Notes: generated by a model not told the origin, from the letters alone. Numbered from the stretch's first letter, positions 12,130-37,537 are shown. The stretch is 38,101 nt of DNA from Hyphomicrobiales bacterium (GCA_040255145.1 JBDZUN010000005.1:1-38101), one strand, 5' to 3'. A program made the numbers and translations.

Positions 12130-12897
12130 ATGTCGATGCCGCGCGATACCAGCCGTAACGAGGACGGAACACGCAAGACTCTGGTGCTGACCGGCGCCAG
12201 CCGCGGCATCGGCCACGCCACGGTCAAGCGGTTCTCCAGTGCCGGCTGGCGGGTGATCTCGTGCTCGCGCCATCCGTTTCCGGAGGATTGCCCGTGGGAG
12301 GCGGGGCCCGAAGACCACATCCAGGTCGACCTCGGCGATCCCGCCGACCTCGAACGCGCGATCGTGGAGATGCGCGAGCGGCTCGGCGACGGCCTGCTGC
12401 ACGCCCTGGTCAACAATGCCGGCATCTCGCCCAAGGGCGCCGAGGGCGCGCGGCTCGGCACGATGGAGACCGATTTCGACCTGTGGCGCCATGTCTTCCG
12501 GGTCAATTTCTTCGCGCCGATCCTGCTGGCGCGCGGCCTGGTGGAGGAACTGCGGCGCGCCCACGGCGCGATCGTCAACGTCACCTCGATCGCCGGCAGC
12601 CGGGTCCATCCCTTCGCCGGCGCCGCCTATGCCACGTCGAAGGCGGCGCTGGCCGAGCTGACGCGCGAGATGGCGGCGGATTTCGGACCGCTCGGCGTCC
12701 GGGTCAATGCGATCTCGCCGGGCGAGATCGATACCGCGATCCTGTCGCCCGGCACCGAGAACCTGGTCGCCCAGATTCCGCTGCGCCGCCTCGGCGCGCC
12801 GGAGGAGGTGGCCAAGGCAATCTATTTCCTGTGTACCGAGCAGTCGAGCTACGTTTCCGGCTCGGAACTGCACATCAATGGCGGCCAGCACGTCTGA
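12130..12897 (+). CDS. short-chain dehydrogenase/reductase (SDR) family oxidoreductase
   Basis: TGASRGIG cofactor motif, NNAG, and the catalytic YATSKAAL (YxxxK). The start is uncertain: there is no clear SD, and a CCTAG-TCT-CTAGG inverted repeat sits just upstream. Confidence 0.88.
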   Translation: MSMPRDTSRNEDGTRKTLVLTGASRGIGHATVKRFSSAGWRVISCSRHPFPEDCPWEAGPEDHIQVDLGDPADLERAIVEMRERLGDGLLHALVNNAGISPKGAEGARLGTMETDFDLWRHVFRVNFFAPILLARGLVEELRRAHGAIVNVTSIAGSRVHPFAGAAYATSKAALAELTREMAADFGPLGVRVNAISPGEIDTAILSPGTENLVAQIPLRRLGAPEEVAKAIYFLCTEQSSYVSGSELHINGGQHV

Positions 12898-12930
12898 AGG
12901 CGAGGGGCCGGCACAAAAACGGGGGGAAGC

Positions 12931-13791
12931 ATGGATATCGGCGTGTTCCAGATCGCGCCCAACGAATCCGCCGACGCGGCCGCGGTCGCGCGCCACGCGG
13001 AGGAGCTGGGCTTCGAATCCTACTGGACGGCGGAGCATACGATTCTGCCGGTCGAGTACAGCGTGCGTTATCCCGGCCAGCGCGAGGGCGACCCGGTCCC
13101 TGACTATCTGTGGCAGATGCCGGACCCGCTGATCAGCCTGGCGCGGGCGGGCGGCGCCACCAGCCGCATCAAGCTCGGTACTGGCATCTGCCTGGTGCCG
13201 GAGCGCAACGCCATCCTGCTGGCCAAGCAGATCGCAAGCCTGGACAACGCCACGGGCGGCCGCTTCCTGTTCGGCGTCGGCGCCGGCTGGAACCCCGAGG
13301 AATGCACGATCCTGGGCGGCGACTTTCCGCACCGCTGGACCCAGGTCAAGGACCACGTCGCCGCCATGAAGGTGCTGTGGCAGGACGATGTCTCGGAATA
13401 TCACGGCAAGTATGTCGACTTCCCGCCGGTGCGCTGCTTTCCCAAGCCGGCCCGGAAGCCGCATCCGCCGGTGCTGATCGGCGGCATCAACACGACCTTC
13501 GCGTATAAGCGCGTTGCGCAATGGGGCGACGGCTGGCTGCCGGTGCTGCGCACTGTCGAGCAATTTGCCGAGGGCGTGCGCGAGATTTCCGAAATGGCCA
13601 AGCAGGTCGGGCGCGATCCGGCTAAGCTCGACTTCACCGTATTCGGTGGCAACGGCCAGTGGCGCAGCAAGGCCGAGCTCGATGCGCTGGGCAAGGCCGG
13701 CGCAAACCGGGTCGTGATCTGGCTGAACGAGGACAAGGGCGACGCCATCCTCCGCGAATTGGACCAGGTCGCCGGGCTCGTGCTGCGCTGA
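12931..13791 (+). CDS. luciferase-like monooxygenase (LLM) family oxidoreductase, short 'F420-dependent-type' class
   Basis: MDIGVFQIAP...ELGFESYWTAEHTILP...GTGICLVPERN...FPKPARKPHPPVLIGG. It is paralogous to the 36486-37358 product. The cofactor assignment is by recall of the TIGR03619-like class only. Confidence 0.8.
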   Translation: MDIGVFQIAPNESADAAAVARHAEELGFESYWTAEHTILPVEYSVRYPGQREGDPVPDYLWQMPDPLISLARAGGATSRIKLGTGICLVPERNAILLAKQIASLDNATGGRFLFGVGAGWNPEECTILGGDFPHRWTQVKDHVAAMKVLWQDDVSEYHGKYVDFPPVRCFPKPARKPHPPVLIGGINTTFAYKRVAQWGDGWLPVLRTVEQFAEGVREISEMAKQVGRDPAKLDFTVFGGNGQWRSKAELDALGKAGANRVVIWLNEDKGDAILRELDQVAGLVLR

Positions 13792-13816
13792 GGCGCCTGC
13801 CGGCGGCCGCGCCTCG

Positions 13817-13838
13817 GCCGGCGGACAAGGCCGCCGGC
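13817..13838 (+). terminator. GC-only hairpin (GCCGGCGG-acaagg-CCGCCGGC) between the LLM and kinase genes; a possible attenuator or terminator, with no U-tract
   Basis: Perfect 8-bp stem read directly from the sequence, followed by GGGTGCTTGATG. Confidence 0.25.
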
Positions 13839-13935
13839 GGGTGCTTGATGTCGGGCGGGTGGGGCCTTAGCCTGCGCGCGCCGCAAGGCCACCAATTCCA
13901 CCGACGATCCCGCCAACGGATTCGAAACGCCAGGT

Positions 13936-15024
13936 ATGACGGAGAAGGACAAAGGCGCGGCGCGCGTCGCCACCCTTGAAGAGATCGAAACCCAGCTCGC
14001 CGCCTTCGTCGCCGTGCATTACGGTGCCGATGCGGAGGCGCGCGAGGTTGGCCCGATGCCGGGTCATGCCGGCCTGACCTTCGGCTTCGAGGTGTGGCAC
14101 GGCGGCCGGCGGCGCGATTCGCTTGTCCTGCGCATCCCGCCGAAGAACGTCCGCCGCGCCGGCAACACCGACGTCTATCGCCAGGCGCCGCTTCTGCGCG
14201 CGCTCAAGACGCAGGGGCTGCCGGTGCCGGGCGTGCCCTGGGCCGAGGTGGGCGACGACACCGAATTCGGCGTGCCCTACATCATGATGGAGCGGCTCGC
14301 GGGCGAGACCTGCTTCCTGTGGGATCCACAACCGGTCTGGCCGCGCACGGACGATACCATCCCGAACCTGTGGCGGCAGGGCGCACGCGCCCTGGCCCAG
14401 ATCCATGAATTCGACTGGCGCAGGCACCTGCCGGATTGGGAAACGCCGCGACCCGCGACGGAGGAGATCGCGCGCTGGACGCCGATCTTCGCTCAGTCGC
14501 CCGAGCCGGAATGGATCGCGATCGCCGAGGAGGTGCGCGGCCTGCTGCTCGAAACCATGCCGGCCGACATCCCGGTCGGGCTGATGCACGGCGACTATCA
14601 GATCGGCAACATCCTGTTCCAGGACGGCCAGGTCGCCGGCGTCATCGACTGGGAGCTGTCCGGGATCGGCGCGCACCTGCTCGATCTCGGCTGGTACATG
14701 ACCTTCGCTGATCCCGAGAGCTGGAGCACCAAATGGGGCCCGGTCAACCCGGCGCCGATCGCCGAATTGCAGGCGGCTTATGAGGAGGTGCGGGGCCGGC
14801 CGCAGCCCGACGTCGAATGGTATCGGGCCTTCGCCGGCTTCCGCTTCGGCTCGATCACCTGCCTGAACGTCAAGCTGCACCGGAAGGGCTATCGCCACGA
14901 CCCGGTGTGGGAGGATATCGGCCTCTCCGCCATGTCCTTGTTCGGCCGCGCCCGCGAGCTTTTGCGGGAACGCCGCGCGGCGGGAAGGAATAGGAACCGG
15001 GCGACGAGAGGAAGCGTGCCATGA
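13936..15024 (+). CDS. APH-fold phosphotransferase family protein (ACAD10/11 N-terminal kinase-like / LvaA-like)
   Basis: Protein-kinase-like fold motifs: LVLRIPPK (Lys), MERLAGE, catalytic LMHGDYQIGNILF and VIDWELSGIG. This family is commonly adjacent to FadE2/ACAD10-type dehydrogenases. Confidence 0.85.
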   Translation: MTEKDKGAARVATLEEIETQLAAFVAVHYGADAEAREVGPMPGHAGLTFGFEVWHGGRRRDSLVLRIPPKNVRRAGNTDVYRQAPLLRALKTQGLPVPGVPWAEVGDDTEFGVPYIMMERLAGETCFLWDPQPVWPRTDDTIPNLWRQGARALAQIHEFDWRRHLPDWETPRPATEEIARWTPIFAQSPEPEWIAIAEEVRGLLLETMPADIPVGLMHGDYQIGNILFQDGQVAGVIDWELSGIGAHLLDLGWYMTFADPESWSTKWGPVNPAPIAELQAAYEEVRGRPQPDVEWYRAFAGFRFGSITCLNVKLHRKGYRHDPVWEDIGLSAMSLFGRARELLRERRAAGRNRNRATRGSVP

Positions 15025-16043
15025 AGATCGCGTTCGTGCCTGACACCCATTTCGGCGCCTACGACCAGCCGACATTGCCGTCCGGCCCCGAGGTCGCGGA
15101 CGCGATGGAACACTGCATCCGCGAGGCGGAGATCGCGGAGCGCGTCGGCTTCGACGGCCTCTGGGTGCCGGAGCGCCATCAGCGGCCGGAGACATGGTGG
15201 CCGAACACCGTGACCCAGCTTACGGCCCTGGCGGCGCGGACCTCGCGGGTGCAGATCGCCTGCACCGTCATGCAGCCGACCTATCACCACCCGGTGCATC
15301 TGGCGGAGCAGCTTGCCAACATCGACTGTCTGTCGCGCGGGCGCCTGACCTTCGGCGCCGGGGTCGGCTACCACGCCGACTATTTCCGTCACTTCGGCGT
15401 GCCCTTCGACAAGCGCGGCAAGCGCTTCGAGGAAACGATGGAGGTCATCGACGCCTGCTGGACGCAGGAGAGCATGACCTATCGCGGCGAATTCTTCCAA
15501 TACGACGACGTCCGCATGTCGCCGAAGCCGTACCAGAAGCCGCGGCCGCCGGTCTGGATCGGGGCGCTGTCCGACAAGGCGCGGGACCGTGCGCTGCGCT
15601 GGGACGGCTGGATCACCTGGTTCCCGCCTTCGCTCCGGGAGTTGAGACCGCAGGTCGAGGCGATGCGCGAACGCGCCGACAAGCTCGGCAAGAAGGACTG
15701 GCAGTTCGCGATGGGCTTCGAAGGCTGGCTCGGCGACGAGCCGGACATCCGCGAGAAGCACGGCCACCGCTGGGTGCGTGAGTGGAGCTTCTATGCCGAG
15801 AAGGGCCTGTCGCACGAGATGCAGGCCGGCGACATGCTGGACACCATCGAGGACATGTTCCTGTGCCTCGGCAACAAGCAGAAATGGCAGGACCGCCTGG
15901 GCGCGATCAAGGAGCAGGTCAATCCCGACTGGATCGGCATCCGCACGCGCAACCCGGTCAATCCGGGCAAGTACTATCCGTCCCGCCAGGAATCGTTGGA
16001 AGTGGTCGAACGCTTCGGCGAAATCCTGGACGGGGTGCGCTAG
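15021..16043 (+). CDS. LLM-class flavin-dependent oxidoreductase
   Basis: MKIAFVPDTHFG...GFDGLWVPERHQ...SRGRLTFGAGVGY...PKPYQKPRPPVWIGA. The ATG overlaps the kinase stop (ATGA at 15021-15024). Confidence 0.85.
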   Translation: MKIAFVPDTHFGAYDQPTLPSGPEVADAMEHCIREAEIAERVGFDGLWVPERHQRPETWWPNTVTQLTALAARTSRVQIACTVMQPTYHHPVHLAEQLANIDCLSRGRLTFGAGVGYHADYFRHFGVPFDKRGKRFEETMEVIDACWTQESMTYRGEFFQYDDVRMSPKPYQKPRPPVWIGALSDKARDRALRWDGWITWFPPSLRELRPQVEAMRERADKLGKKDWQFAMGFEGWLGDEPDIREKHGHRWVREWSFYAEKGLSHEMQAGDMLDTIEDMFLCLGNKQKWQDRLGAIKEQVNPDWIGIRTRNPVNPGKYYPSRQESLEVVERFGEILDGVR

Positions 16044-16088
16044 GTTTGGAGCGTAATGTGTTTAGCCTGGATTGCCTTACACTCAGAT

Positions 16089-16205
16089 GTCATCCCCGCG
16101 GAAGCGGGGGTCCAGTAGACTTCGGCTGAGGGAAGTACTCGCAGCTTTCGTCGTTTACTGGATCCCGGCTCGCGTGCCCTGCAGCCGCTTGGCCGGGAGG
16201 ACAAT
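16089..16205. repeat. composite palindromic intergenic repeat, copy A (REP/MITE-like)
   Basis: GTCATCCCCGCGGAAGCGGGGGTCCAGTAGAC hairpin module (16089-16120). GTTTACTGGA (16153-16162) is inverted relative to TCCAGTAGAC. Then GGATCCCGGCTCGC-N-GCCGCTTGGCCGGGAGGACAA. The same modules recur near 29047 and 37373. Confidence 0.75.
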
Positions 16206-16306
16206 AGAATGTGAGATCACACTTGATCGCATCCCGCGTTAGGTGTGGTGGCAGTGCTGAATTTGGGAATTTTTTCCGTGATCTTCCTTACCGTGAAAGA
16301 CAGCTC

Positions 16307-17488
16307 ATGATCGACTTCTCGCTGCCGCCCGAGATCGAGGCCCTGCGCCAGCGCACGCAGGATTTCATCCGCGACGTGGTCATCCCGCGCGAGAAGGATC
16401 CGCGCCAGGACCGTCACGGTCCCAGCGACGAATTCCGCAAGGAATTGGTGGCCGAGGCGCACAAGGTCGGCCTGGTGACGCCGCAGGCGAAGAAGGAATG
16501 GGGCGGCCTCGGCCTCGACCATCGCGGCACGGCGGTCGTGTTCGAGGAGGCGGGCTATTCGCCGGTCGGCCCGCTCGCGCTCAACATCCAGGCGCCGGAC
16601 GAGGGCAACACCAACCTGCTGGAGCAGGTCGCGACGTCGGAGCAGAAGGAACGCTATCTGCGCCCGCTGGTTACGGGCGAGGTCCGCTCCGTCTTCTGCA
16701 TGACCGAGCCGGACGGCGGCGCCGGCTCCGACCCCAGCCTGATGAAGACGACGGCGCGGCCGAACGGCAAGGGCGGTTATGTCATCAACGGCCGTAAATG
16801 GCTGATCACCGGCTTTCCGGGCGCCGGCTTCCAGATCGTCATGGCGCGGACGGAAGACGCGCACGGCCACGACCTCGGTGCCAGCATGTTCCTGTTCGAG
16901 ACCGACCGGAAGGGCGTGAAGAATGCCGGCGTGCTGAACACCATGGACAACAATTCGCCGGGCGGCCACGCCATCGTCGATTTCGAGGATGTCGAGGTCG
17001 GCGAGGACGAAGTGCTGGGCGAGATCGGCCGCGGCTTCCGCTACGCCCAGGTGCGGCTCGGCCCGGCGCGCATGACCCATTGCATGCGCTGGCTGGGCGC
17101 GGCGCGGCGCTGTCACGACATCGCGGTCGCCTATTCGCGCGAGCGCCAGGCGTTCGGCAAAAGGCTGGGCGAGCACGAGGGCGTCGGCTTCATGCTGGCC
17201 GACAACGAGATGGACCTGCACAGCAGCCGGCTGTCGATCTGGCACGCCTGCTGGCTGCTCGACCAGGGCGACCAGGCGCGGCGCGAGACCAGCCAGTCCA
17301 AGGTGTTCTGCTCCGAGGCGCTGGGCCGCGTGGTCGACCGCTCCCTACAGATACTCGGCGGCAAGGGCGTCACCGACCAGACGGTGGTGGAGCGTATCTA
17401 TCGCGACATCCGCGCCTTTCGCATCTATGACGGCCCGTCGGAAGTGCACCGCTGGGCGCTGGCCCGCACCATTGTCGGCCGGAACTAG
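16307..17488 (+). CDS. acyl-CoA dehydrogenase family protein of the ACAD10/ACAD11/FadE2/LvaC-like type
   Basis: Start at ATG 16307 (MIDFSLPPEIEALRQRT...). ACAD fold motifs are present (CMTEPDGGAGSDP; GRGFRYAQVRLGPARMTHCMRWLG). The C-terminal motif reads RIYDGPSEVH where canonical ACADs have YEGT(S/N)EIQ. Confidence 0.85.
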   Translation: MIDFSLPPEIEALRQRTQDFIRDVVIPREKDPRQDRHGPSDEFRKELVAEAHKVGLVTPQAKKEWGGLGLDHRGTAVVFEEAGYSPVGPLALNIQAPDEGNTNLLEQVATSEQKERYLRPLVTGEVRSVFCMTEPDGGAGSDPSLMKTTARPNGKGGYVINGRKWLITGFPGAGFQIVMARTEDAHGHDLGASMFLFETDRKGVKNAGVLNTMDNNSPGGHAIVDFEDVEVGEDEVLGEIGRGFRYAQVRLGPARMTHCMRWLGAARRCHDIAVAYSRERQAFGKRLGEHEGVGFMLADNEMDLHSSRLSIWHACWLLDQGDQARRETSQSKVFCSEALGRVVDRSLQILGGKGVTDQTVVERIYRDIRAFRIYDGPSEVHRWALARTIVGRN

Positions 17489-17556: not shown

Positions 17557-18042
17557 CTACCTCAGGTCGACCGTGCGCACGGGCCGATGCTTGGCCCAGA
17601 ACGCGAGCCTTGCCCGCGCCTTCGGGTCATGGGCGTCGAGCGCCTTAACGAGCTGGTCGTCCGTCACCCCGAGGTGCTTCTGATAGGAGCGCAACTCGAA
17701 GTAGTACAGCGCGGCGTATTTTCCGTCGACCTTATCCGAGATGCGCCAACAGCCGAATTCCAGCCCCAGCATGAAATAGTGCGTATGCGGGTTGTCGGCT
17801 TGCCCGCGAATGGACATCCCCAGACATTCGTCGAAAGAGTTCGGATTGCCGGCGGTTTTTTTGCCGTCGCAGAATTTCGCCACCGTATAGCCGCGTGTTA
17901 TCTCCGACTGGAGCGCCGGCGCCAGTTCGGTTTTCGCACTGGATTTCGCCGAGGCCGCCCCTGTGATCATCGAGAGGAGAAGGCAGAGCGCGAACGACGA
18001 CGGGGCGCTGCCCCGTCCTGGCTGTGGCGATGGAAACGACAC
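17557..18042 (-). CDS. hypothetical small secreted protein (about 161 aa with a GTG start; 137 aa if ATG 17970 is used)
   Basis: This is the only sensible part of the 923-aa track ORF. GC3-rich codons and natural amino-acid composition (...EITRGYTVAKFCDGKKTAGNPNSFDECLGMSIRGQADNPHTHYFMLGLEFGCWRISDKVDGKYAALYYFELRSYQKHLG...). The GTG at 18042 yields a signal peptide ...SSFALCLLLSMITGAASA|KS. I recognise no family. Confidence 0.6.
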   Translation of the reverse strand: MSFPSPQPGRGSAPSSFALCLLLSMITGAASAKSSAKTELAPALQSEITRGYTVAKFCDGKKTAGNPNSFDECLGMSIRGQADNPHTHYFMLGLEFGCWRISDKVDGKYAALYYFELRSYQKHLGVTDDQLVKALDAHDPKARARLAFWAKHRPVRTVDLR

Positions 18043-22066: not shown

Positions 22067-22154
22067 ATTCGCCGACGGCATAGGTGGCATTCCCGCCGGC
22101 TCTGTCCGAAACTCCGCGCCGTTCTTGCTTGTGGGACGGACGGAGCCGGATGGA

Positions 22155-23282
22155 ATGAGGCAGCACTGGAAATGGATCGCCGGGGGCGCGGCCTTGGTCG
22201 TCGTCGTGCTCGGCGGATATTGGTACTGGCATTATTCCGGCCTGCACCCGTCGACCGACGACGCCTATATCCAGGCGGACGTGGTGCGCATCGCGCCGCG
22301 GATCGCCGGTCGCGTGCTCGAGGTGCCGGTCGTCCATTACCAGCACGTGCGGCGCGGCGACCTTCTGGTCCTGATCGACCCGGAGCCGTTCCAGGTCGCG
22401 CTCGACCGGGCCCAGGCGCAGCTCGCCAATGTCAGCACCCAGGTCAACGCGCTCGAATCGGCCGTGATCGCCGCGCAGGCGTCTGTGGTCCAGGCGCGGG
22501 CGCAACTCAAGAATGCCGTAACGAATGCACGGCGCGCGCAGGCGCTGGTCAAGACCGGCGATGCGCCGCGCGCCCGGCTCGACGACGCGATGGCCGCCTT
22601 GCGCACCAATCGCGGCGCTCTGGCCGGGGCGCAGGCGCGGGTGAACCAGGCGCAGCATGAGCTGGGGCAGGTCGGCAAGGACAATGCCCAGGTCAAATCG
22701 GCGTTGGCCCAGGTCGAAATGGCACGGCTTAACCTCTCCTATACGCGGATCGTCGCGCCGGCGGACGGCGTGCTGGGCGAGGTGCAAGTCCGGCCGGGGG
22801 CGATGGTCGCGGTCAGCGAGAACCTGTTCCCGCTGGTCGAAGACGGCAGCTTCTGGGTCGCGGCCAATTTCAAGGAAACCGACCTGCGGCACATCCGCAC
22901 GGGGCAGCCGGCCACGATCGACATCGATATCTCCGACCACACCTATCACGGGGTGGTGGCCAGCATCAGTCCCGCCAGCGGCGTGGCGTTCGCGTTGCTG
23001 CCGCCGGAAAATGCCACGGGCAACTGGGTGAAGGTCACGCAGAGGTTCCCGGTCAAGATCGTGCCGACCGACGCCGACCGGGTCGCCATGCCGTGGTCGC
23101 CCTGGCGCGTCGGCGCCAGCACGGCCGTCACCGTCGACACGACGCGCGAGGTCGCTGGGCGCGCGGATCGTGCGCCGGGCGCGGCACCCGCCATACCGGA
23201 GCCGGAACGCGCCCCGGCGCCGACACCGCCCGACCTGCCGCTATCCGGAACCCAGGCGTCGCCCGGTGCGATCCACGGATAG
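22155..23282 (+). CDS. HlyD-family membrane fusion protein (EmrA-like) of an MFS efflux pump
   Basis: N-terminal TM segment (WIAGGAALVVVVLGGYWYW), the STDDAYIQADVVRIAPRIAGRV lipoyl-like motif, a coiled-coil region, and NWVKVTQRFPVKI near the C-terminus. There is an unusual Pro/Ala-rich tail of about 45 aa. Confidence 0.88.
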   Translation: MRQHWKWIAGGAALVVVVLGGYWYWHYSGLHPSTDDAYIQADVVRIAPRIAGRVLEVPVVHYQHVRRGDLLVLIDPEPFQVALDRAQAQLANVSTQVNALESAVIAAQASVVQARAQLKNAVTNARRAQALVKTGDAPRARLDDAMAALRTNRGALAGAQARVNQAQHELGQVGKDNAQVKSALAQVEMARLNLSYTRIVAPADGVLGEVQVRPGAMVAVSENLFPLVEDGSFWVAANFKETDLRHIRTGQPATIDIDISDHTYHGVVASISPASGVAFALLPPENATGNWVKVTQRFPVKIVPTDADRVAMPWSPWRVGASTAVTVDTTREVAGRADRAPGAAPAIPEPERAPAPTPPDLPLSGTQASPGAIHG

Positions 23283-23291
23283 GGTGGTGCG

Positions 23292-24827
23292 ATGAGCGAC
23301 GGACGCGGCAGCACCGACGGCAAGCCCGTCAATCCATGGCTGGTCGCCTCAGCGGTCATGCTGACCACGGTGATGGTCATCCTGGACATGACCATCGTCA
23401 ACGTCGCCATGCCGCACATGATGGGCGCGCTGGGGGCGACGTCGGACGAGATCACCTGGGTGCTCACGTCCTACATCGTCGCCGACGGCATCTTCATCCC
23501 GGCCAGCGGCTTTCTGGCGCAGCGCCTCGGCCGGCGGAAGCTCCTGCTGATCAGCGTCGTCGGCTTCGTCACCGCCTCGGCCCTGTGCGGGCTGAGCGAG
23601 AGCCTGGCGCAGATGGTGCTGTTTCGCGTGCTGCAAGGCGCGTTCGGTGCCTCGGTCATCCCCCTGTCGCAGTCGATCATGGTCGACGAGTTTCCGCCCG
23701 AGCAGCGCGGCCGCGCCATGGCGATCTGGGGTCTGGGCGTGATGATGGGGCCGATCCTGGGGCCTACGATCGGCGGGCTGATCGTGCAGAACCTGGATTG
23801 GCGCTGGGTCTTCTACATCAACGTCCCAGTCGGCATCCTGAACGTCTTCATGGTGCTGGCCTGGGTCCGGCAGACCGCGCGGCACCGGCTGCCGGTCGAC
23901 TGGATCGGCGCCGGGCTGATGGCGTTCGGCATCGGCTGCGGCCAGGTCGTGCTCGACCGCGGCAACCAGGAGGACTGGTTCCATTCTCACCTGGTCCAGG
24001 TGGCGGCGCTGACCTCGGTCGTCTGCCTGACCTGGTTCGCCGTCCGCGCCTGGCGGCGGCCCGACGGCATTGTCCGGCTGAAGCTTCTGCGCGATCGCAA
24101 TCTGGCCACCGCCTCGTTCATGATGGTGGCGTTCGGCTTCGGCATGTTCGGCACCATCGCGCTGCAGCCGCTGCTGCTGCAGAACGTGCTCGGTTATCAG
24201 GCTGACACCACCGGCCTGGTGATGGCGCCGCGCGGCATCGCGTCCGGCTTCAGCATGGTGCTGGTCGGTCAGCTCATCCAGCGCGTCGATCCGCGCTATC
24301 TGGTCGCCTTCGGCCTCGTCGTCTCGGCGGCCGGCGCGTATTTCATGTCGCACTACAGCCTGTTCATCGACCCGTGGTGGGCGATCTGGCCGGGGCTGCT
24401 GCAAGGTGTCGGCATCGGCATGATCTTCGTGCCGCTGTCGACCATCGCCTACGCCACCCTGGATCGAAGCGCGACCGACCAGGGCTCCGCCATCTTCAAT
24501 ATCGCGCGCACGATCGGCAGTTCGGTCGGCATCTCGATCGCCAGCACCGTGACCTATCGGCTCGGCCAGATCACCTGGAACCAGCTCGGCGGCCATATCG
24601 ACGGCTACAGCCGGGCCGTGCACGACTATCTGGCGAACCAGGGCCTCAGCCTGGCCGATCCGTTGGCGCCGCACATCCTCGGCCAGGAATTGCAGCGGCA
24701 GAGCCAGATGCTGGCCTATGTCGATGCCTTCTGGCTGATCGCGATCAGCTTCATCGCGCTCGCGCCGCTGGCGCTTCTGCTGCGCCGGGGGGCCAAGGAT
24801 GCGGCCGCGCCGCCGGGCGGCCACTGA
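23292..24827 (+). CDS. MFS transporter, DHA2 (EmrB/QacA, 14-TMS) drug-efflux family
   Basis: MVILDMTIVNVAMPHMMGALGAT.DEITWVLTSY...GRRKLLLISVVGF...LFRVLQGAFGA motifs. The 511-aa length fits 14 TMS. It starts 9 nt after the MFP gene. Confidence 0.9.
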   Translation: MSDGRGSTDGKPVNPWLVASAVMLTTVMVILDMTIVNVAMPHMMGALGATSDEITWVLTSYIVADGIFIPASGFLAQRLGRRKLLLISVVGFVTASALCGLSESLAQMVLFRVLQGAFGASVIPLSQSIMVDEFPPEQRGRAMAIWGLGVMMGPILGPTIGGLIVQNLDWRWVFYINVPVGILNVFMVLAWVRQTARHRLPVDWIGAGLMAFGIGCGQVVLDRGNQEDWFHSHLVQVAALTSVVCLTWFAVRAWRRPDGIVRLKLLRDRNLATASFMMVAFGFGMFGTIALQPLLLQNVLGYQADTTGLVMAPRGIASGFSMVLVGQLIQRVDPRYLVAFGLVVSAAGAYFMSHYSLFIDPWWAIWPGLLQGVGIGMIFVPLSTIAYATLDRSATDQGSAIFNIARTIGSSVGISIASTVTYRLGQITWNQLGGHIDGYSRAVHDYLANQGLSLADPLAPHILGQELQRQSQMLAYVDAFWLIAISFIALAPLALLLRRGAKDAAAPPGGH

Positions 24828-28131: not shown

Positions 28132-28614
28132 ATGCAACTTGCCGGGAGGTCGGCGTTGGATACCGGGACGGTCAATCCGCTGGATGCGCATCTGGGCTAC
28201 TGGCTGCGCTTTGTGTCGAACCACGTCAGCCACGCCTTCCGGCGCAAGCTGGCGGGTCTGGGCGTGACGGTGGCCGAATGGGTCGTGCTGCGCGATCTGC
28301 TGGCACATGCCGACGCGGCGCCCAGCGCCGTGGCTGAACGGCTTGGCATGACGCGCGGCGCGATCTCGAAGCTGGCCGACCGCCTGATCGCCAAGGGGCT
28401 GGCGACGCGCGAAGCCGGCGGTCCGGACCGCCGCTACCAGACCCTGGCGCTGACCCCGGCGGGGCGGGCGCTGGTGCCGGAGCTGGCGGCGCTGGCCGAC
28501 CGCAACGACGCCGAGTTCTTCGGCCACCTGAGCGTGGCGGAACGGGCTGCGATCGAACAGGCGATGCGCGAGATCGTGCGCCGCCACGGCCTGAAAAGCG
28601 TGCCGGTCGAGTGA
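28132..28614 (+). CDS. MarR-family transcriptional regulator
   Basis: LGYWLRFVSNHVSHAFRRKLAGLGVTVAEWVVLRDL...ERLGMTRGAISKLADRLIAKGL (wHTH). The alternative start at TTG 28156 is preceded by GGGAGG at 6-nt spacing and fits the predicted promoter better than ATG 28132. Confidence 0.88.
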   Translation: MQLAGRSALDTGTVNPLDAHLGYWLRFVSNHVSHAFRRKLAGLGVTVAEWVVLRDLLAHADAAPSAVAERLGMTRGAISKLADRLIAKGLATREAGGPDRRYQTLALTPAGRALVPELAALADRNDAEFFGHLSVAERAAIEQAMREIVRRHGLKSVPVE

Positions 28615-28628
28615 GGAAACATCAGGAC

Positions 28629-29042
28629 ATGGAGAATCCGATGGACGCGAGCGTCAAGCAGGTCATGCAGGAATGCAGCAAAGGGTCCGACGAAGACGGG
28701 ATGCGGTTCCCCGAAGTGATCGGGAAGCTGATGGCGGCGGGGGTGGAGCGTTATCACGCCGACCTGTGCCGCGCGGAAAAGACCTACTATCTGCCGAACG
28801 GCGAATCCCATATCGTGCCCTCGGCGCGGATCGCGCGTGATCCCGCGCCGGATTTCGCGGCCACGAGGGTTGAGGCCGCGGTTCGCGCGATCCAGGTCGG
28901 CGAGCTGAGCTATCAGGAATTCTGCGCCGAGATCATGACTGCCGGCTGCGTCGGCTATTGCGTGTCGCTGGCCGGGCGGCGCGCGGTCTATTACGGCCGC
29001 ACCGGCGACTTCCATGTTGAACATTTCCCGTCCGCGCGTTGA
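28629..29042 (+). CDS. DUF1398 family protein (YbcV-like)
   Basis: ...MRFPEVIGKLMAAGVERYHADLCRAEKTYYLPNGES...YQEFCAEIMTAGCVGYCVSLAGRRAVYYGRTGDFHVEHFP matches my recollection of DUF1398 proteins. Possible starts are 28611 (GTG, overlapping the MarR stop), 28629 and 28641 (GGAG 6 nt upstream). Confidence 0.75.
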   Translation: MENPMDASVKQVMQECSKGSDEDGMRFPEVIGKLMAAGVERYHADLCRAEKTYYLPNGESHIVPSARIARDPAPDFAATRVEAAVRAIQVGELSYQEFCAEIMTAGCVGYCVSLAGRRAVYYGRTGDFHVEHFPSAR

Positions 29043-32381: not shown

Positions 32382-32678
32382 GCCCAGGACCTCATGTTCA
32401 CCAGCGCTCCATGCGCGGTGGTGAAAGTCATGGGACTCGTCGCAACAGCGAGGGCCAGGACCCGCTAATGCGGGGATCGGGCTAACCGCACCGATCTCTC
32501 CTTTTTAGACGTTCGGCTGATATCAGCGATCCGCTCCCAGTCCAACCGTGCAATCGGTCGAAGGCCAAGGTTCGAACCGAGGCACGAACCCCGCACGGAT
32601 TTCGATGTCGCCAGGCCGCGCGTTGCCACGCACAATAGAGGTGGCGCAATGGGGGGCGCAGCAATGGGTGAGAATGCC

Positions 32679-33161
32679 ATGGACAAGGACGATTATCGGC
32701 GGCGTGTCCGGCTTGCGCTGACCGGCGAGATGCTGGGCGAGGCGATGACCTCCGCCCTGGCGGAGGCGGCCGAGACGCCCGAGCAACGCTACAAATGGGC
32801 GTCCCTGCTGCAGCTCGAATCCGAGACCAAGGTGCGCCTGCGCGCGTTCGCGGCCGGCATCGGCGTCAGCGTGCTGGAAGACGAGGAACGCCGTCGCCAA
32901 GGCGTTGAACGCGCTGGCGCCATGGCCGGCATGAACTGGGCCGAGGCGATGGCCTCCTTCCGTGATCTGGTGGCGCCGGCCGTCGGCTGGTACCGCAAGC
33001 TGGAGGCGATGGGGCCGGACGCCGACAAACCGACGCTGCGGGCGGCACTGGCGCACGAGGTCGCGTTGCTCGACTTCCTCGATGCCGAGCTCGAAGGCGA
33101 GCCGGACGCGATCGCGCCCGTCGTCGCGTTGCTCGACCACCCGCTGCCGCGGCCGGCGTGA
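32679..33161 (+). CDS. hypothetical protein, predicted all-helical, no family recognised
   Basis: Strong GC3 bias across the frame and Ala/Leu/Glu-rich helical composition (MDKDDYRRRVRLALTGEMLGEAMTSALAEAAETPEQRYKWASLLQLESETKVRL...). In-frame alternative starts lie at 32649 and 32664. Confidence 0.55.
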   Translation: MDKDDYRRRVRLALTGEMLGEAMTSALAEAAETPEQRYKWASLLQLESETKVRLRAFAAGIGVSVLEDEERRRQGVERAGAMAGMNWAEAMASFRDLVAPAVGWYRKLEAMGPDADKPTLRAALAHEVALLDFLDAELEGEPDAIAPVVALLDHPLPRPA

Positions 33162-33231
33162 CCGCCGGGCAAACAAATGGCGATGGGCCCGCTTCGTGAA
33201 GGATAGGAGGCCGCCCGGCGGCCTCGTGTCG

Positions 33232-34176
33232 CTATTCCGCTGCCTTCGCCACCGCGCGGCCGTGCACCTCGGGAATCACGGTCTCGATCAGGAGCCGCGT
33301 CTGCTGGTAGAGATCCTCGTCGCCGTCGCCCAGCGGGCGCAGGATGAACTTGGCGATGCCCGCCGCCTCGTATTCGCGTACACGCTGTACCATCTCGGCC
33401 GCGTCGCCGACCACGATGGTCTTATCCAGGTTCCGCTTCGGGAACATCTTGCGGTACATCGCGCGCCGCGCCGCGCCGACCGGGTCGTCAGCCGGGCCGA
33501 AGCGGAAGAAGAAGCCGGCGGAGAAATGCTCCGGATCCATCTCGCGGCCCGCTTCGATCGCCGCCTGCTTGATCGCGGTGACGACCGGCCCTACTTCCTC
33601 CGGCGATTCCAGGCCCGCCTGCCAGCCGGTGCCGAAGCGCGCGGTGCGCCGGATCGCCGCCTGGCTCGACCCGCCGAGCCACAGCGGCAGCGGCTGCTGC
33701 ACTGGCAGCGGCAGGATCGAGGCGTCCTTGTAATGGAAAAAGTCGCCGTCGAAGGTGACCGTCTCGCCGCGCCACAGCCGCTCGATGATCTCAAGCGATT
33801 CGTCGGTGCGCTTGCCCTGGCCCTCGGTCTTGATGCCCATCGCGCCCCAATCCTGCGAATTGAGGTTGCCGATGCCGAAGGCGGGCAGAAGCCGGCCGTT
33901 GCTGAGGAAGTCGATGGTCGCGCATTCCTTGGCGATGACCAGCGGCTCGCGCAGGCCCAGCGCGATAACGTTCATGCCGAATTTGAGCTTCTCGGTGGCG
34001 CCGGCCAAAGCGGCCATCGTGCTCATGCATTCCAGGAACGGCACCGGCGCGACCATGCGGTCGGTCTGCCACAGCGAATCGATGCCGCCCGCCTCGCACA
34101 GCCGCACCCAGCGCCAGAATGCCTGCGGCCCCGAGAACGGGAAGTCCGCCAGGCCCAGTCCGATCCGTACCGCCAT
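33232..34176 (-). CDS. LLM-class flavin/deazaflavin-dependent oxidoreductase
   Basis: Start at ATG 34176 (MAVRIGLGLADFPF...GIDSLWQTDRM...LSNGRLLPAFGIGN...LPVQQPLPLWLGG). The LLM TIM-barrel pattern is present. Confidence 0.82.
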   Translation of the reverse strand: MAVRIGLGLADFPFSGPQAFWRWVRLCEAGGIDSLWQTDRMVAPVPFLECMSTMAALAGATEKLKFGMNVIALGLREPLVIAKECATIDFLSNGRLLPAFGIGNLNSQDWGAMGIKTEGQGKRTDESLEIIERLWRGETVTFDGDFFHYKDASILPLPVQQPLPLWLGGSSQAAIRRTARFGTGWQAGLESPEEVGPVVTAIKQAAIEAGREMDPEHFSAGFFFRFGPADDPVGAARRAMYRKMFPKRNLDKTIVVGDAAEMVQRVREYEAAGIAKFILRPLGDGDEDLYQQTRLLIETVIPEVHGRAVAKAAE

Positions 34177-34322
34177 CGCGTTCACTCCCTGGTATTGCCG
34201 CCATCGTCGCACCGAACAGTCGTTTTCCCAAGTCCTGGACGTTGCCGGCGCGCGCCCTACAATGCGTCGCAAAATCGGGCCGCGCCGGATTCGGGCGGCA
34301 AGCCAAGCCTGGAGGGCGCATC

Positions 34323-35396
34323 ATGGAATTCGGGGTCTCGATCCCCACGCCGGCGGATGCCTGGAAGACCGCGAAGCGGGCGGAGGACGCCGGCTATCGC
34401 ACCGCCTGGTTCTACGACACCCAGCTTTTGAGCGCTGACGTCTTCGTCGGCATGGGCGCGGCGGCGATGAAGACGGACCGCATTCGCCTCGCGACTGGCG
34501 TGCTGATCCCGTCCAACCGCATCGCGCCGGTCGCCGCCAACGCCTTCGCCAGCCTGAACGCGCTGGCGCCCGGCCGAATCGACGCCGGCATCGGCACCGG
34601 CTATACCGGCCGGCGTACCATGGGCCTCGGCCCCTACAAGCTGGCCGATATGGGCGAATACATCCGCGTCATGCAGGCGATGTGGCGCGGCGAGACGCCG
34701 GAGATCAGGATCGAGGGCAAGACCCGCAAGGTCCGCTTCCTCAACCCCGACGCCAAGCTGATCAATATCGACGATGAGATGCCGGTCTATGTCTCGGCCT
34801 TCGGGCCGAAGGCGCGGCGGCTGACGGCCGAGGTCGGCGCCCACTGGATCAACGTCGATTTCAACGAGGACCTGGCGGCGCAGGCATCGCAGGACATGGA
34901 CCAGGTCTATCGCGACGCGGGGCACGATCCGGCCAAGAAGCGCAAGGTGGTCTTCCTGTGGGGCTCGGTGCTCAAGGAGGGCGAGGCCTATGACAGTCCG
35001 CGCATCAAGGCGGAGACCGGGCCTTTCGCGGTGATGATGCTGCACAACGCGATGGAGGCGCAGGACCACGGCGACCTGGTCGAATCCGCCGCGCCCGACA
35101 ACGAGATCGCCCGCCTGGCGCCCGAATACCGCAAGACGGTCTATGAGAAGTATCAGCCGGCCGAGACGCGCTATCTGAACCTGCACCGCGGCCATCTGAT
35201 GTTCGTGCGGCCGGAAGAGGAGCGGTTCGCCACCGCCGAACTGATCCGTACCGCGACCATCACCGGCACCGTGGCGGAGCTGCGCGACCGCATGCGCCGG
35301 CTGAAGGATGCCGGCTATGACGAGGTGGTCGTGCAGGTCACGCCCGGCCACGACAGCATGGTCGAGGACTGGGCACGCGTGTTCGAGGCCGTCTGA
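34323..35396 (+). CDS. LLM-class flavin/deazaflavin-dependent oxidoreductase (Mer-like long form)
   Basis: ATG 34323 lies 7 nt after GGAGGG (MEFGVSIPTPADAWKTAKRAEDAGYRTAWFYDTQLL...APGRIDAGIGTGY...); 357 aa. Confidence 0.82.
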   Translation: MEFGVSIPTPADAWKTAKRAEDAGYRTAWFYDTQLLSADVFVGMGAAAMKTDRIRLATGVLIPSNRIAPVAANAFASLNALAPGRIDAGIGTGYTGRRTMGLGPYKLADMGEYIRVMQAMWRGETPEIRIEGKTRKVRFLNPDAKLINIDDEMPVYVSAFGPKARRLTAEVGAHWINVDFNEDLAAQASQDMDQVYRDAGHDPAKKRKVVFLWGSVLKEGEAYDSPRIKAETGPFAVMMLHNAMEAQDHGDLVESAAPDNEIARLAPEYRKTVYEKYQPAETRYLNLHRGHLMFVRPEEERFATAELIRTATITGTVAELRDRMRRLKDAGYDEVVVQVTPGHDSMVEDWARVFEAV

Positions 35397-35444
35397 CCCT
35401 TTACGAATCGAAACATTACGTCACCTGCCATCAAGGAGAAGCGC

Positions 35445-36473
35445 ATGGCCGTCGATTGCGGCGTTCTTTGGGGGTTCCGCAACCCCGACTTCAACAAACG
35501 TCCGTGGGCGGAGGTCTATCAGAATGAGCTCGACCTGATCGTCGACTCGGAGAAGCTCGGCTTCGGCCATGCCTGGCTGACCGAACATCATTTCGCCGAT
35601 GACGGCTATTCGCCGTCCCTGATGGCGATCGCCGGTGCGGCGGCCGCGCGCACCAGGCTGATCCGTATCGGCACCTTCGTGCTGCTTCTGCCGCTGCATG
35701 ACCCGATCGAGGTGGCGGAGGACTCCGCGACCGTCGATATCATCTCGAACGGCCGGTTCGACCTCGGCGTCGGCCAGGGCTACGTGCCTTACGAATTTGA
35801 TCCGCGCGGCATCCCGCACAAGACGCGCGGCCGGCGGATGGAGGAAGGCCTCAACATCCTCCGTGGTCTGCTGACCGGCGAGAAGTTCAGCTTCGAGGGC
35901 AGGCACAACCATCTGGACAACATCCGGATCGTGCCGCCGCCGGTGCAGAAGGACTTCCCGATCTGGGTCGGCGCGCGCGGCGACAAGGCGCTGGACCGTG
36001 CCGCGCGGCTCGGCTTCCATCTGGCCTCGGTCGGCGTCGCGCATCATCGCGACAAATATATCGACGCGCTGAAAAGGCACGGCCGCAATCCGGACGATTT
36101 CAACGTCGTGCAGCTCGTCACCTGCTATTGCGCCGAGACGCATGAGAAGGCGTGGGACGATATCGCCGATGGCTTCCACCACGTGCTGAAATACTACCAC
36201 GACTGGGCGGTCGCATCGGGCGACGTGACGGGTGACGTGGAAGGTCAGGCGGTGCCGACGCCGGCGCAGTTCCGCAAGGAGCAGAAGGGCGAGTTCTTCG
36301 GCGAGCCCGCCTTTGTCGGTACGCCGGACGAGGTGCTGGCCGGCCTGCAGAAATACCTCGCGCGGTCGCCCGGCTCGCATCTCGTCATGTACATGGCGAT
36401 CCCTGGCAATGCGCCGGAAAACACGCGCCGTAGCATGGAGCTGTTTTCCAAGCACGTGATGCCCCGCCTCTGA
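35445..36473 (+). CDS. LLM-class flavin-dependent oxidoreductase
   Basis: ...KLGFGHAWLTEHHFADDGYSPS...SNGRFDLGVGQGY...PPPVQKDFPIWVGA...; 342 aa. Confidence 0.85.
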   Translation: MAVDCGVLWGFRNPDFNKRPWAEVYQNELDLIVDSEKLGFGHAWLTEHHFADDGYSPSLMAIAGAAAARTRLIRIGTFVLLLPLHDPIEVAEDSATVDIISNGRFDLGVGQGYVPYEFDPRGIPHKTRGRRMEEGLNILRGLLTGEKFSFEGRHNHLDNIRIVPPPVQKDFPIWVGARGDKALDRAARLGFHLASVGVAHHRDKYIDALKRHGRNPDDFNVVQLVTCYCAETHEKAWDDIADGFHHVLKYYHDWAVASGDVTGDVEGQAVPTPAQFRKEQKGEFFGEPAFVGTPDEVLAGLQKYLARSPGSHLVMYMAIPGNAPENTRRSMELFSKHVMPRL

Positions 36474-36485
36474 GGAGAAAACGTC

Positions 36486-37358
36486 ATGCGCATCGGCATC
36501 CAGGTCGCATTCGCCGGCCCCGCCGCCGACCCCGTTCATGTGCGCGAGACCGCGCGGCGGGCGGAGGCGGTCGGCTTCCATTCGATCTGGGTGCCGGAGC
36601 ACGTGGTGCTGTTCGAGGAATACGCCTCGCGCTATCCCTATTCGGCCGACGGCAAGATCGGCGGCGGCGCCCACCTCGCGCCGCCGGAACCGCTGACCTG
36701 CCTCGCCTTCATGGCGGCGTGTACGGAGAAAATCCGGCTTGGAACCGGCATCCTGATCGTGCCGCAGCGCAACCCCGTTTATACCGCGAAGCAGGTCGCC
36801 GACCTCGACGTGCTGTCCGGCGGACGGTTCGATTTCGGCATCGGCGTCGGCTGGCTGGCGGAGGAATTCCAGGCGCTCGCCGTCCCGTTTGAACATCGCG
36901 GTGCCCGCGCCGACGACTACCTGCGCGTCATGAAGGCGCTGTGGACACAGGAAACGTCCTGTTACGACGGCAAGCTCTACAAGCTGCCGCCGGTGGTGCA
37001 GAACCCCAAGCCGGTGCAGAAGCCGCATCCGCCGATCTATGCCGGTGGCGAATCGGACGCGGCGCTGTCACGTGCCGCCCGCCTGTGCCAGGGCTGGTAC
37101 GGCGTCGCGCTGACGCCCGAGACCCTGCCGGACCGGCTCAAGGTGCTGGACGCGAAGCTCGCCGAGAACAATCGCACACGGAAGGATATCGCGGTACTGG
37201 TGTCGCCCTATGCGGCGAAGCCCGACCTCGACATGGTCCGCCGGTTCGAGGACCAGGGCGTGGACGAGGTCGTGCTGATGGCGATGCATTCGAAGCGCGA
37301 GCGCGTCTACCAGATGATCGACGACCTGGCCGAACGCATCGTCGCCAAGGCGGCGTAA
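36486..37358 (+). CDS. LLM family oxidoreductase, short 'F420-dependent-type' class (paralogue of 12931-13791)
   Basis: MRIGIQVAF...AVGFHSIWVPEHVVL...GTGILIVPQRN...SGGRFDFGIGVGW...NPKPVQKPHPPIYAGG; 290 aa. Confidence 0.82.
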   Translation: MRIGIQVAFAGPAADPVHVRETARRAEAVGFHSIWVPEHVVLFEEYASRYPYSADGKIGGGAHLAPPEPLTCLAFMAACTEKIRLGTGILIVPQRNPVYTAKQVADLDVLSGGRFDFGIGVGWLAEEFQALAVPFEHRGARADDYLRVMKALWTQETSCYDGKLYKLPPVVQNPKPVQKPHPPIYAGGESDAALSRAARLCQGWYGVALTPETLPDRLKVLDAKLAENNRTRKDIAVLVSPYAAKPDLDMVRRFEDQGVDEVVLMAMHSKRERVYQMIDDLAERIVAKAA

Positions 37359-37372
37359 ACGTCGTCCTTCTT

Positions 37373-37537
37373 CCGTCATCATCCGCGCAGGCGGATGATC
37401 CAGTAAACGGCCGCCGTGGTGCGAGCGGGCGAGCGCAAATCCTGGCTGTCATCCCGGAAGCCCGCAGGGCTATCCGGGATCCATAAGAACAGGAACGGAT
37501 CCCGGCTCGCCTAAAGGCCGCTTGGCCGGGATGACAA
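37373..37537. repeat. composite palindromic intergenic repeat, copy C
   Basis: GTCATCATCCGCGCAGGCGGATGATCCAGTAAAC (37373-37406). A second hairpin module GTCATCCCGGAAGCCCGCAGGGCTATCCGGGATCC lies at 37446-37480. Then GGATCCCGGCTCGC-N-GCCGCTTGGCCGGGATGACAA (37495-37535). Confidence 0.75.

Follow-up and report, generated by a model that had tools for sequence, protein, structure and literature searches.

Four divergent luciferase-like oxidoreductase genes arrayed without a partner reductase in an uncultured alphaproteobacterium: candidate F420-linked enzymes

What four luciferase-like oxidoreductases (LLMs) do when they are encoded side by side without any gene for a partner flavin reductase, and with which cofactor they do it, is the question raised by a stretch of DNA from a Hyphomicrobiales bacterium (GCA_040255145.1 JBDZUN010000005.1:1-38101). 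The stretch, analysed over its whole length of 38,101 nucleotides and hereafter called the window, contains four intact open reading frames (ORFs) of the PF00296 family at positions 33232-37358, of which LLM1 lies on the minus strand and is divergent from the plus-strand row LLM2-LLM3-LLM4. The reading which we favour, by a modest degree, is that the four are separate, self-sufficient TIM-barrel enzymes, most of them F420-linked hydride transferases (LLHTs) rather than monooxygenases dependent on reduced flavin mononucleotide (FMNH2) and O2. The four genes add to the known LLM/LLHT enzymes and are not a new system; indeed, the array itself is ordinary.

The identity of the genes is straightforward. 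All four score 123-210 bits against the PF00296 Bac_luciferase model (gathering cutoff 27.9; E values 2e-35 to 5e-62), and each has a coding-type GC content at third codon positions (0.83-0.87). The ORF calls and PF00296 matches bear out the coordinates, lengths and gaps given in the initial annotation, the intergenic gaps being 146, 48 and 12 nt for LLM1/LLM2, LLM2/LLM3 and LLM3/LLM4, respectively. The two further LLMs reported there at 12931 and 15021 (here LLMa and LLMb) are both real, such that the window holds six. In an alignment of these six, identity to LLM1 is 20-32%, and therefore the array did not come from a recent duplication; the genes are old, divergent paralogues, as had been supposed.

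The array had also been described as having no reductase, transporter or regulator. This holds for the array and for the genes that flank it directly (a family-less ORF, a glyoxalase, LigT and a GlcD-like FAD oxidase), and for reductases it holds across the window, in that no flavin reductase of PF01613 or PF03358 occurs anywhere in the 38 kb, the rest of the genome being a place where one may be encoded. It does not extend to regulators and transporters farther off, as MarR, XRE and LysR regulators and HlyD-MFS (major facilitator superfamily) transporters are all present in the window, at least several kb away from the array. The premise behind the description, that LLMs usually cluster with a reductase, was overstated: no flavin reductase is seen in any orthologue context that was read, and stand-alone LLM genes are commonplace.

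Whether the four genes belong together can be judged from their relatives. Array order recurs on six independent metagenome contigs of close relatives: L140 and L141 carry LLM1 / LLM2-LLM3-LLM4, L049 and L050 carry the LLM3-LLM4 pair, L135 has LLM2 (99% identity) / LLM1 (95%), and L136 reads LLM3 (85%) <- LLM2 (83%) / LLM1 (75%) -> LigT <- argG (90%). The ratio of nonsynonymous to synonymous substitution rates (dN/dS) is 0.01-0.26, with LLM1 at 0.10 against L135, commensurate with purifying selection on all four LLMs. The clustering of the four genes exceeds chance. Their co-occurrence is, however, limited to these close relatives, at 75-99% identity. Among 47 genome loci with LLM2 orthologues (45-73%), none has an orthologue of LLM1, LLM3 or LLM4 within 10 kb, and clustering of the neighbours reveals no conserved LLM2 partner, no family being present in more than 7 of 31 loci. 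LLM1 orthologues (52-67%) are never found beside LLM2, and the LLM3 orthologues (78-82%, from Pseudonocardia and other contigs) and an LLM4 orthologue (69%) are solitary amid unrelated genes. Since LLM2, LLM3 and LLM4 have solitary orthologues in more distant relatives, each LLM is seen to be its own old and widespread orthologous group, working by itself elsewhere and joined to the others in one lineage. In other words, the linkage is a trait of a single alphaproteobacterial lineage and not a conserved pathway.

This bears on the proposal, put forward in the initial annotation, that a single scaffold is worked on by the four enzymes in turn, in a dedicated multi-step redox pathway. The tight gaps of 48 and 12 nt would be in keeping with such a pathway, as would the order kept under purifying selection in close relatives and the frequent presence of other LLMs near LLM1-type genes, some other LLM paralogue being contained in 29 of 80 LLM1-orthologue loci. 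But the set breaks up beyond those close relatives, the orthologues of LLM2, LLM3 and LLM4 (ca 45-82%) being solitary, and it neither is linked to nor travels with any gene for scaffold building, transport or regulation; the proposal is accordingly not borne out, and we regard it as unlikely. A closer partnership, in which the LLM3 and LLM4 proteins pair as paralogous subunits of a LuxAB-like heterodimer, might be read from the 12-nt gap, from the LLM4 ribosome-binding site that overlaps the LLM3 stop codon and from the retention of the pair in L049, L050, L140 and L141. Both proteins retain, however, the residues that all six LLMs of the window share, and their orthologues (78-82% for LLM3, 69% for LLM4) occur without the partner, which makes the heterodimer the least probable of the arrangements considered here.

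Recurrent neighbours of LLM1 orthologues are confined to other LLMs, antibiotic biosynthesis monooxygenase (ABM)-domain proteins, short-chain dehydrogenases/reductases (SDRs) and APH phosphotransferases. In the neighbour census, another LLM lies directly upstream of the LLM1 orthologue in 14 of 65 loci, and an ABM-domain protein, absent from the window, lies one or two genes upstream in 13 of 65 (for example L078, 3633-4643). Arrays of divergent LLMs are found elsewhere too, in L061, L086 and others. LLM3 itself is 78-86% identical to proteins of Pseudonocardia, Binatia and Deltaproteobacteria metagenome-assembled genomes (L051-L054 among the loci), a cross-phylum identity far above that of housekeeping proteins and which therefore points to recent horizontal spread of this gene.

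With regard to the cofactor, the initial annotation had offered F420- or tightly-bound-flavin-dependent reductases, and it is the F420 part only that gains support, from three directions. The first is family assignment by hidden Markov models (HMMs). The top-ranked NCBIfam LLM models are of F420 type only for all four proteins. Against TIGR03619 (cutoff 166.9), LLM4 passes with 252.6, and LLM1 and LLM3 fall just under with 159.8 and 154.1; LLM1 also scores 174 against TIGR03854 (cutoff 295.6), and LLM2 is far under every curated subfamily cutoff, its best NCBIfam model being TIGR03842 at 97.7 vs 295. The FMN-type models are far from their cutoffs (SsuD 87.7-90 vs 518; TIGR04027 115 vs 413). 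Sorting the array into subfamilies by such models, as had been advised, thus succeeds for LLM4 and leaves the other three proteins unplaced, none of the four falling in an FMN subfamily. A literature search found no biochemical work on TIGR03619 or Rv2161c.

Comparison with solved structures is in partial agreement. The sequence matches of LLM2 in the PDB are F420 enzymes only (Adf at 4e-18, Mer, FGD and fHMAD), LLM1 matches Mer first and then SsuD almost as closely, and the best match of LLM3 is 7bip (6e-26). AlphaFold2 models of LLM1 and LLM4 (pLDDT 92.4 and 95.0) are both (beta/alpha)8 TIM barrels, which Foldseek aligns to Mer, SsuD, RslO1 and SfnG with TM scores of 0.73-0.83, the top structural match of LLM1 being Mer. 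Among the top 50 fold matches, enzymes of both cofactor types score equally well, and fold comparison, made here to tell F420 from FMN enzymes, therefore confirms the barrel and cannot separate the cofactors.

The second direction is the distribution of close homologues across 72,556 plasmids, taken at E<=1e-25, with a relaxed limit of E<=1e-10. At the stricter limit, LLM4 has homologues on 44 plasmids, the genera shown being Streptomyces, Rhodococcus, Mycobacterium, other actinobacteria and haloarchaea, plus Paraburkholderia and Halioglobus. LLM3 has them on 42, with the listed genera all haloarchaea, Rhodococcus or Streptomyces; LLM2 on six, from Rhodococcus and Mycobacterium only; and LLM1 on none. 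At the relaxed limit, the LLM3 control returns 622 plasmids, with Rhizobium, Sinorhizobium and Pantoea foremost, and therefore proteobacterial LLMs are plentiful in the plasmid collection and merely more distant. Actinobacteria and haloarchaea are, as is well established, the classic producers of F420 (PMC8498797).

The third is provided by two homologue neighbourhoods. On plasmid p3 of Paraburkholderia sp. PGU19 (L137, L139; 817444-852821), one of the two proteobacterial exceptions above, a complete npdG-cofE-cofD-cofC-cofH operon lies within ca 15 kb of two such LLMs. When the five F420 biosynthesis proteins of this operon were compared with 1.5 Mb of fetched loci, the window included, the sole match was in L061 (1-8795), where six LLMs occupy ca 6 kb and an orthologue of LLM1 (58%) adjoins a bifunctional FO synthase, CofGH (1137 bits vs a cutoff of 1018). 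The other LLMs of L061 are one of TIGR03559 type, one LLM3-like, two that pass TIGR03619 (NCBIfam) and a sixth, LLM4-like, that was detected by tblastn only. In the fetched loci other than L061 and the PGU19 plasmid, from which the queries came, no F420 biosynthesis genes were seen.

Beyond its operon, the PGU19 plasmid has an insertion sequence element and then a catabolic island with the two F420-type LLMs and with P450, electron transfer flavoprotein, acyl-CoA dehydrogenase (ACAD) and SDR genes. The second proteobacterial exception, a gammaproteobacterial plasmid from Halioglobus japonicus (L138, 10,983 bp), encodes an 'LLM class F420-dependent oxidoreductase' and has no F420 genes.

The HMM assignment, the taxa of the closest homologues and the two cases beside F420 biosynthesis genes thereby suggest, indirectly, that most of the four proteins use F420, the assignment being most tentative for LLM3 and LLM1. 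Several observations weigh on the other side. F420 biosynthesis genes of the host were not seen in the 38-kb window, which is the part of the genome that was covered; LLM1, LLM2 and LLM3 reach no curated F420 subfamily cutoff; and LLM1 at the relaxed plasmid limit returns 118 plasmids of mixed hosts, including Sinorhizobium and Sphingobium. The phyletic pattern could, moreover, mirror the distribution of subfamilies instead of cofactor use. The remaining points are also those which commend the chief alternative, namely that some or all of the proteins are FMN-dependent two-component monooxygenases supplied with FMNH2 by a general NAD(P)H:flavin reductase whose gene lies in another part of the genome. 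Among solved structures, LLM3 and LLM4 come closest to RslO1, a LuxA-like luciferase, PuwE and SfnG, and LLM3 retains the LuxA-like EHHF motif; LLM1 is nearly as close to SsuD as to Mer; NCBI names the homologues of LLM1 and LLM3 'LLM class flavin-dependent oxidoreductase'; and the fold search is neutral, ranking F420 and FMN enzymes equally. Set against this alternative, no FMN-family HMM comes near its cutoff, none of the close plasmid homologues comes from the many proteobacterial plasmids in which FMN-type LLMs abound, homologues adjoin F420 biosynthesis genes, and for RslO1 the use of FMN is in turn a deduction from an apo structure (PMC8093152). FMN dependence is a real prospect, albeit a doubtful one, and F420-linked hydride transfer by most of the four remains the reading that we prefer.

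On that preferred reading, each LLM would bind diffusible F420H2 or F420 together with its own small-molecule substrate, and hydride would pass directly between cofactor and substrate. Replenishing the F420 pool would fall to Fno/NpdG or an enzyme of FGD type elsewhere in the cell, and it is for this reason that no reductase would be needed in the array. The substrates are possibly compounds with keto, hydroxy or enoyl groups of a lipid or acyl-CoA-like kind, a guess prompted by the ACAD, APH and SDR surroundings.

A more speculative extension, which we consider a long shot, is that this uncultured, soil-dwelling lineage depends strongly on F420, there being six genes of LLHT type within 38 kb, and that LLM2-LLM3-LLM4 is a closed cycle of the cofactor: one LLM would reduce F420 by means of a substrate and two would spend it, a substrate-coupled deazaflavin redox module for which no separate reductase is required. 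In its most specific form, the operon would be a self-contained redox couple, the 'missing reductase' being itself an LLM: an Adf/FGD-like LLM2 would reduce F420 with an alcohol or a sugar phosphate, and LLM3 and LLM4 would consume the F420H2. LLM2 is indeed the first gene of the three-gene row, and among solved structures it is most closely related to Adf, an alcohol dehydrogenase that reduces F420. The active site, however, does not follow. In Adf and FGD, a His and a Glu are reported to have catalytic roles (His39/40 and Glu108/109; Aufhammer 2004, Bashiri 2008). In the alignment of LLM2 with Adf, for which the printed Adf sequence served to verify the residue numbering, His39 falls in a 7-residue gap (Thr33 in a Mer-style register) and Glu108 stands opposite Tyr94, and the pair is not kept. 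LLM2 also scores about equally against Mer-type reductase models, and its orthologues elsewhere have no paired LLMs, all of which renders this specific form less probable still.

The signals for expression around the array (Table 1) are those of a simple arrangement. Ribosome-binding sites of GGAG type are found for each plus-strand gene, namely GGAGG before the ATG of LLM2, AGGAGA for LLM3 and GGAGA for LLM4. The I21 hairpin is the likely end of the LLM2-LLM3-LLM4 transcript, and the promoter-like site before LLM2, together with the hairpins past LLM1 and LLM4, fits such a transcript plus a divergent LLM1. From these sequence signals, LLM2-LLM3-LLM4 are probably co-transcribed from a promoter in the 146-nt region, with LLM1 transcribed in the opposite direction. 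No Rfam riboswitch or RNA element reaches its gathering score in the window (there is one chance-level match in the array), and a search of the divergent region for repeats and palindromes gave only codon-level echoes between the paralogues.

Table 1. Coordinates of the LLM genes and of the expression signals around the array
Feature	Position	Strand	Description
LLMa	12931..13791	+	286 aa; PF00296; TIGR03619 236.4 vs cutoff 166.9
LLMb	15021..16043	+	340 aa; TIGR03619 180.8 vs cutoff 166.9; start overlaps APH stop by 4 nt
Hairpin, inverted repeat I23	33202..33230		14-nt arms; directly past LLM1 stop, between LLM1 and convergent ORF 32649-33161
LLM1	33232..34176	-	314 aa from ATG (MAVRIGLGL); luciferase-like oxidoreductase; PF00296 E 1.8e-49
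Divergent intergenic region	34177..34322		146 nt between LLM1 and LLM2
Sigma-70-like site	34236-34263	+	TGGACG-16-TACAAT, 9/12 matches; precedes LLM2
LLM2	34323..35396	+	357 aa; Mer/Adf-like LLM; PF00296 E 2e-35
LLM3	35445..36473	+	342 aa; LuxA/RslO1-like LLM, EHHF motif; PF00296 E 4.9e-62
LLM4	36486..37358	+	290 aa; TIGR03619 (Rv2161c-type) LLM; PF00296 match
Hairpin, inverted repeat I21	37468..37511		15-nt arms, 87% complementary; between convergent LLM4 and FAD-oxidase gene

The window in which the array lies is an ordinary chromosomal stretch with a GC content of 65-72%, and its HlyD-MFS pair indicates a Gram-negative source. It carries housekeeping genes (aroC, fabI, a DnaJ-like gene, pdxH, rlmN, argG and ligT) together with catabolic oxidoreductases and other enzymes, comprising three ACADs, an aldo-keto reductase (AKR), SDR, APH, an enoyl-CoA hydratase, a CoA-transferase and an HpcH aldolase. 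Among species-representative genomes, the closest relatives of LLM2 are in uncultured Alphaproteobacteria metagenome-assembled genomes (65-73%) and a Rhizomicrobium fragment. The DNA of the window is present nearly whole in one metagenome run and partially in runs from soil, wastewater and mine drainage; no RNA runs are listed among the matching sequencing runs. An exact look-up of LLM4 and of P0004 in the contig index gave no record.

LLMa and LLMb, both of which pass TIGR03619, belong to a single-strand row (12130-17488, plus strand) that reads SDR - LLMa - APH - LLMb - ACAD. An APH gene adjoins an LLM also in L091, L096 and L097, and an ACAD-APH-SDR-LLM2-like order occurs in L036. The trio of SDR, APH and ACAD beside LLMa and LLMb may resemble a 4-hydroxyacyl-CoA route of the lva or ACAD10-11 type. 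Close to the array, the ORF at 32649-33161 (plus strand, 170 aa) beside LLM1 has no Pfam or NCBIfam match; its counterpart in L135 is kept (85%), with a Zn-peptidase gene between it and LLM1, and in L136 it is absent. Elsewhere, a putative small protein with a signal-peptide-like start is encoded at 17557-18000 (minus strand), in the 0.8-kb gap between ACAD and AKR genes and inside a spurious 923-aa ORF. The EmrAB-like HlyD and MFS efflux pair (22125-24827, plus strand) and a MarR regulator followed by a 143-aa ORF without an NCBIfam match (28132-29042, plus strand) are unlinked to the LLM array.

Expansion and clustering of LLM paralogues are known in bacteria that are rich in catabolic genes, and the wider interest of the array lies only in its host. 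As of a 2021 review, the role of F420 in Proteobacteria was an open question, and no F420-dependent reductase or dehydrogenase from bacteria other than Actinobacteria had been studied experimentally (PMC8498797). If the lineage makes F420, the function of this cofactor in Alphaproteobacteria could be studied on the four compact candidate enzymes of the array and on two more at a distance of 20 kb, which would be candidates for biocatalysis as well. Otherwise, the array shows that 'F420-dependent' names of the TIGR03619 type are unreliable outside F420 producers.

Set beside known systems, the array shares the TIM barrel with the two-component FMN monooxygenases (SsuD/SsuE, SfnG, NtaA/B, LuxAB, RslO1/RslO2 and MsnO8/MsnO3), and LLM3 and LLM4 have their nearest structures among them, at RslO1 and LuxA-like proteins, LLM3 with its EHHF. 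Unlike those systems, it has no linked flavin reductase, transporter or regulator, as is the case too in the orthologue contexts read, and no FMN-family model comes near its cutoff. Mer, Adf and FGD, which reportedly are Class I deazaflavoenzymes of type A/B (Mascotti et al. 2018, 2021), are the sole sequence relatives of LLM2 among solved structures, and Mer is the top structural and sequence match of LLM1; yet identity is only ca 20-25%, LLM2 is without the His-Glu pair, and there is no methanopterin or glucose-6-phosphate context here. The LLM arrays of L061 and PGU19 p3, like the window, place multiple divergent LLMs of these subtypes (LLM1-type, LLM3-like and TIGR03619) next to one another, whereas cofGH or npdG-cofE-cofD-cofC-cofH is nearby there and the window has no cofactor biosynthesis gene. 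From the known F420 LLHT kind, finally, the array differs in its host, an uncultured alphaproteobacterium whose F420 synthesis is putative, and in that LLM1-LLM3 lie under curated cutoffs. With that kind it has in common the fold, the size, stand-alone genes without a partner reductase and many divergent paralogues per genome, as well as LLM4, LLMa and LLMb passing TIGR03619 and the closest plasmid homologues residing in Streptomyces, Rhodococcus and Mycobacterium.

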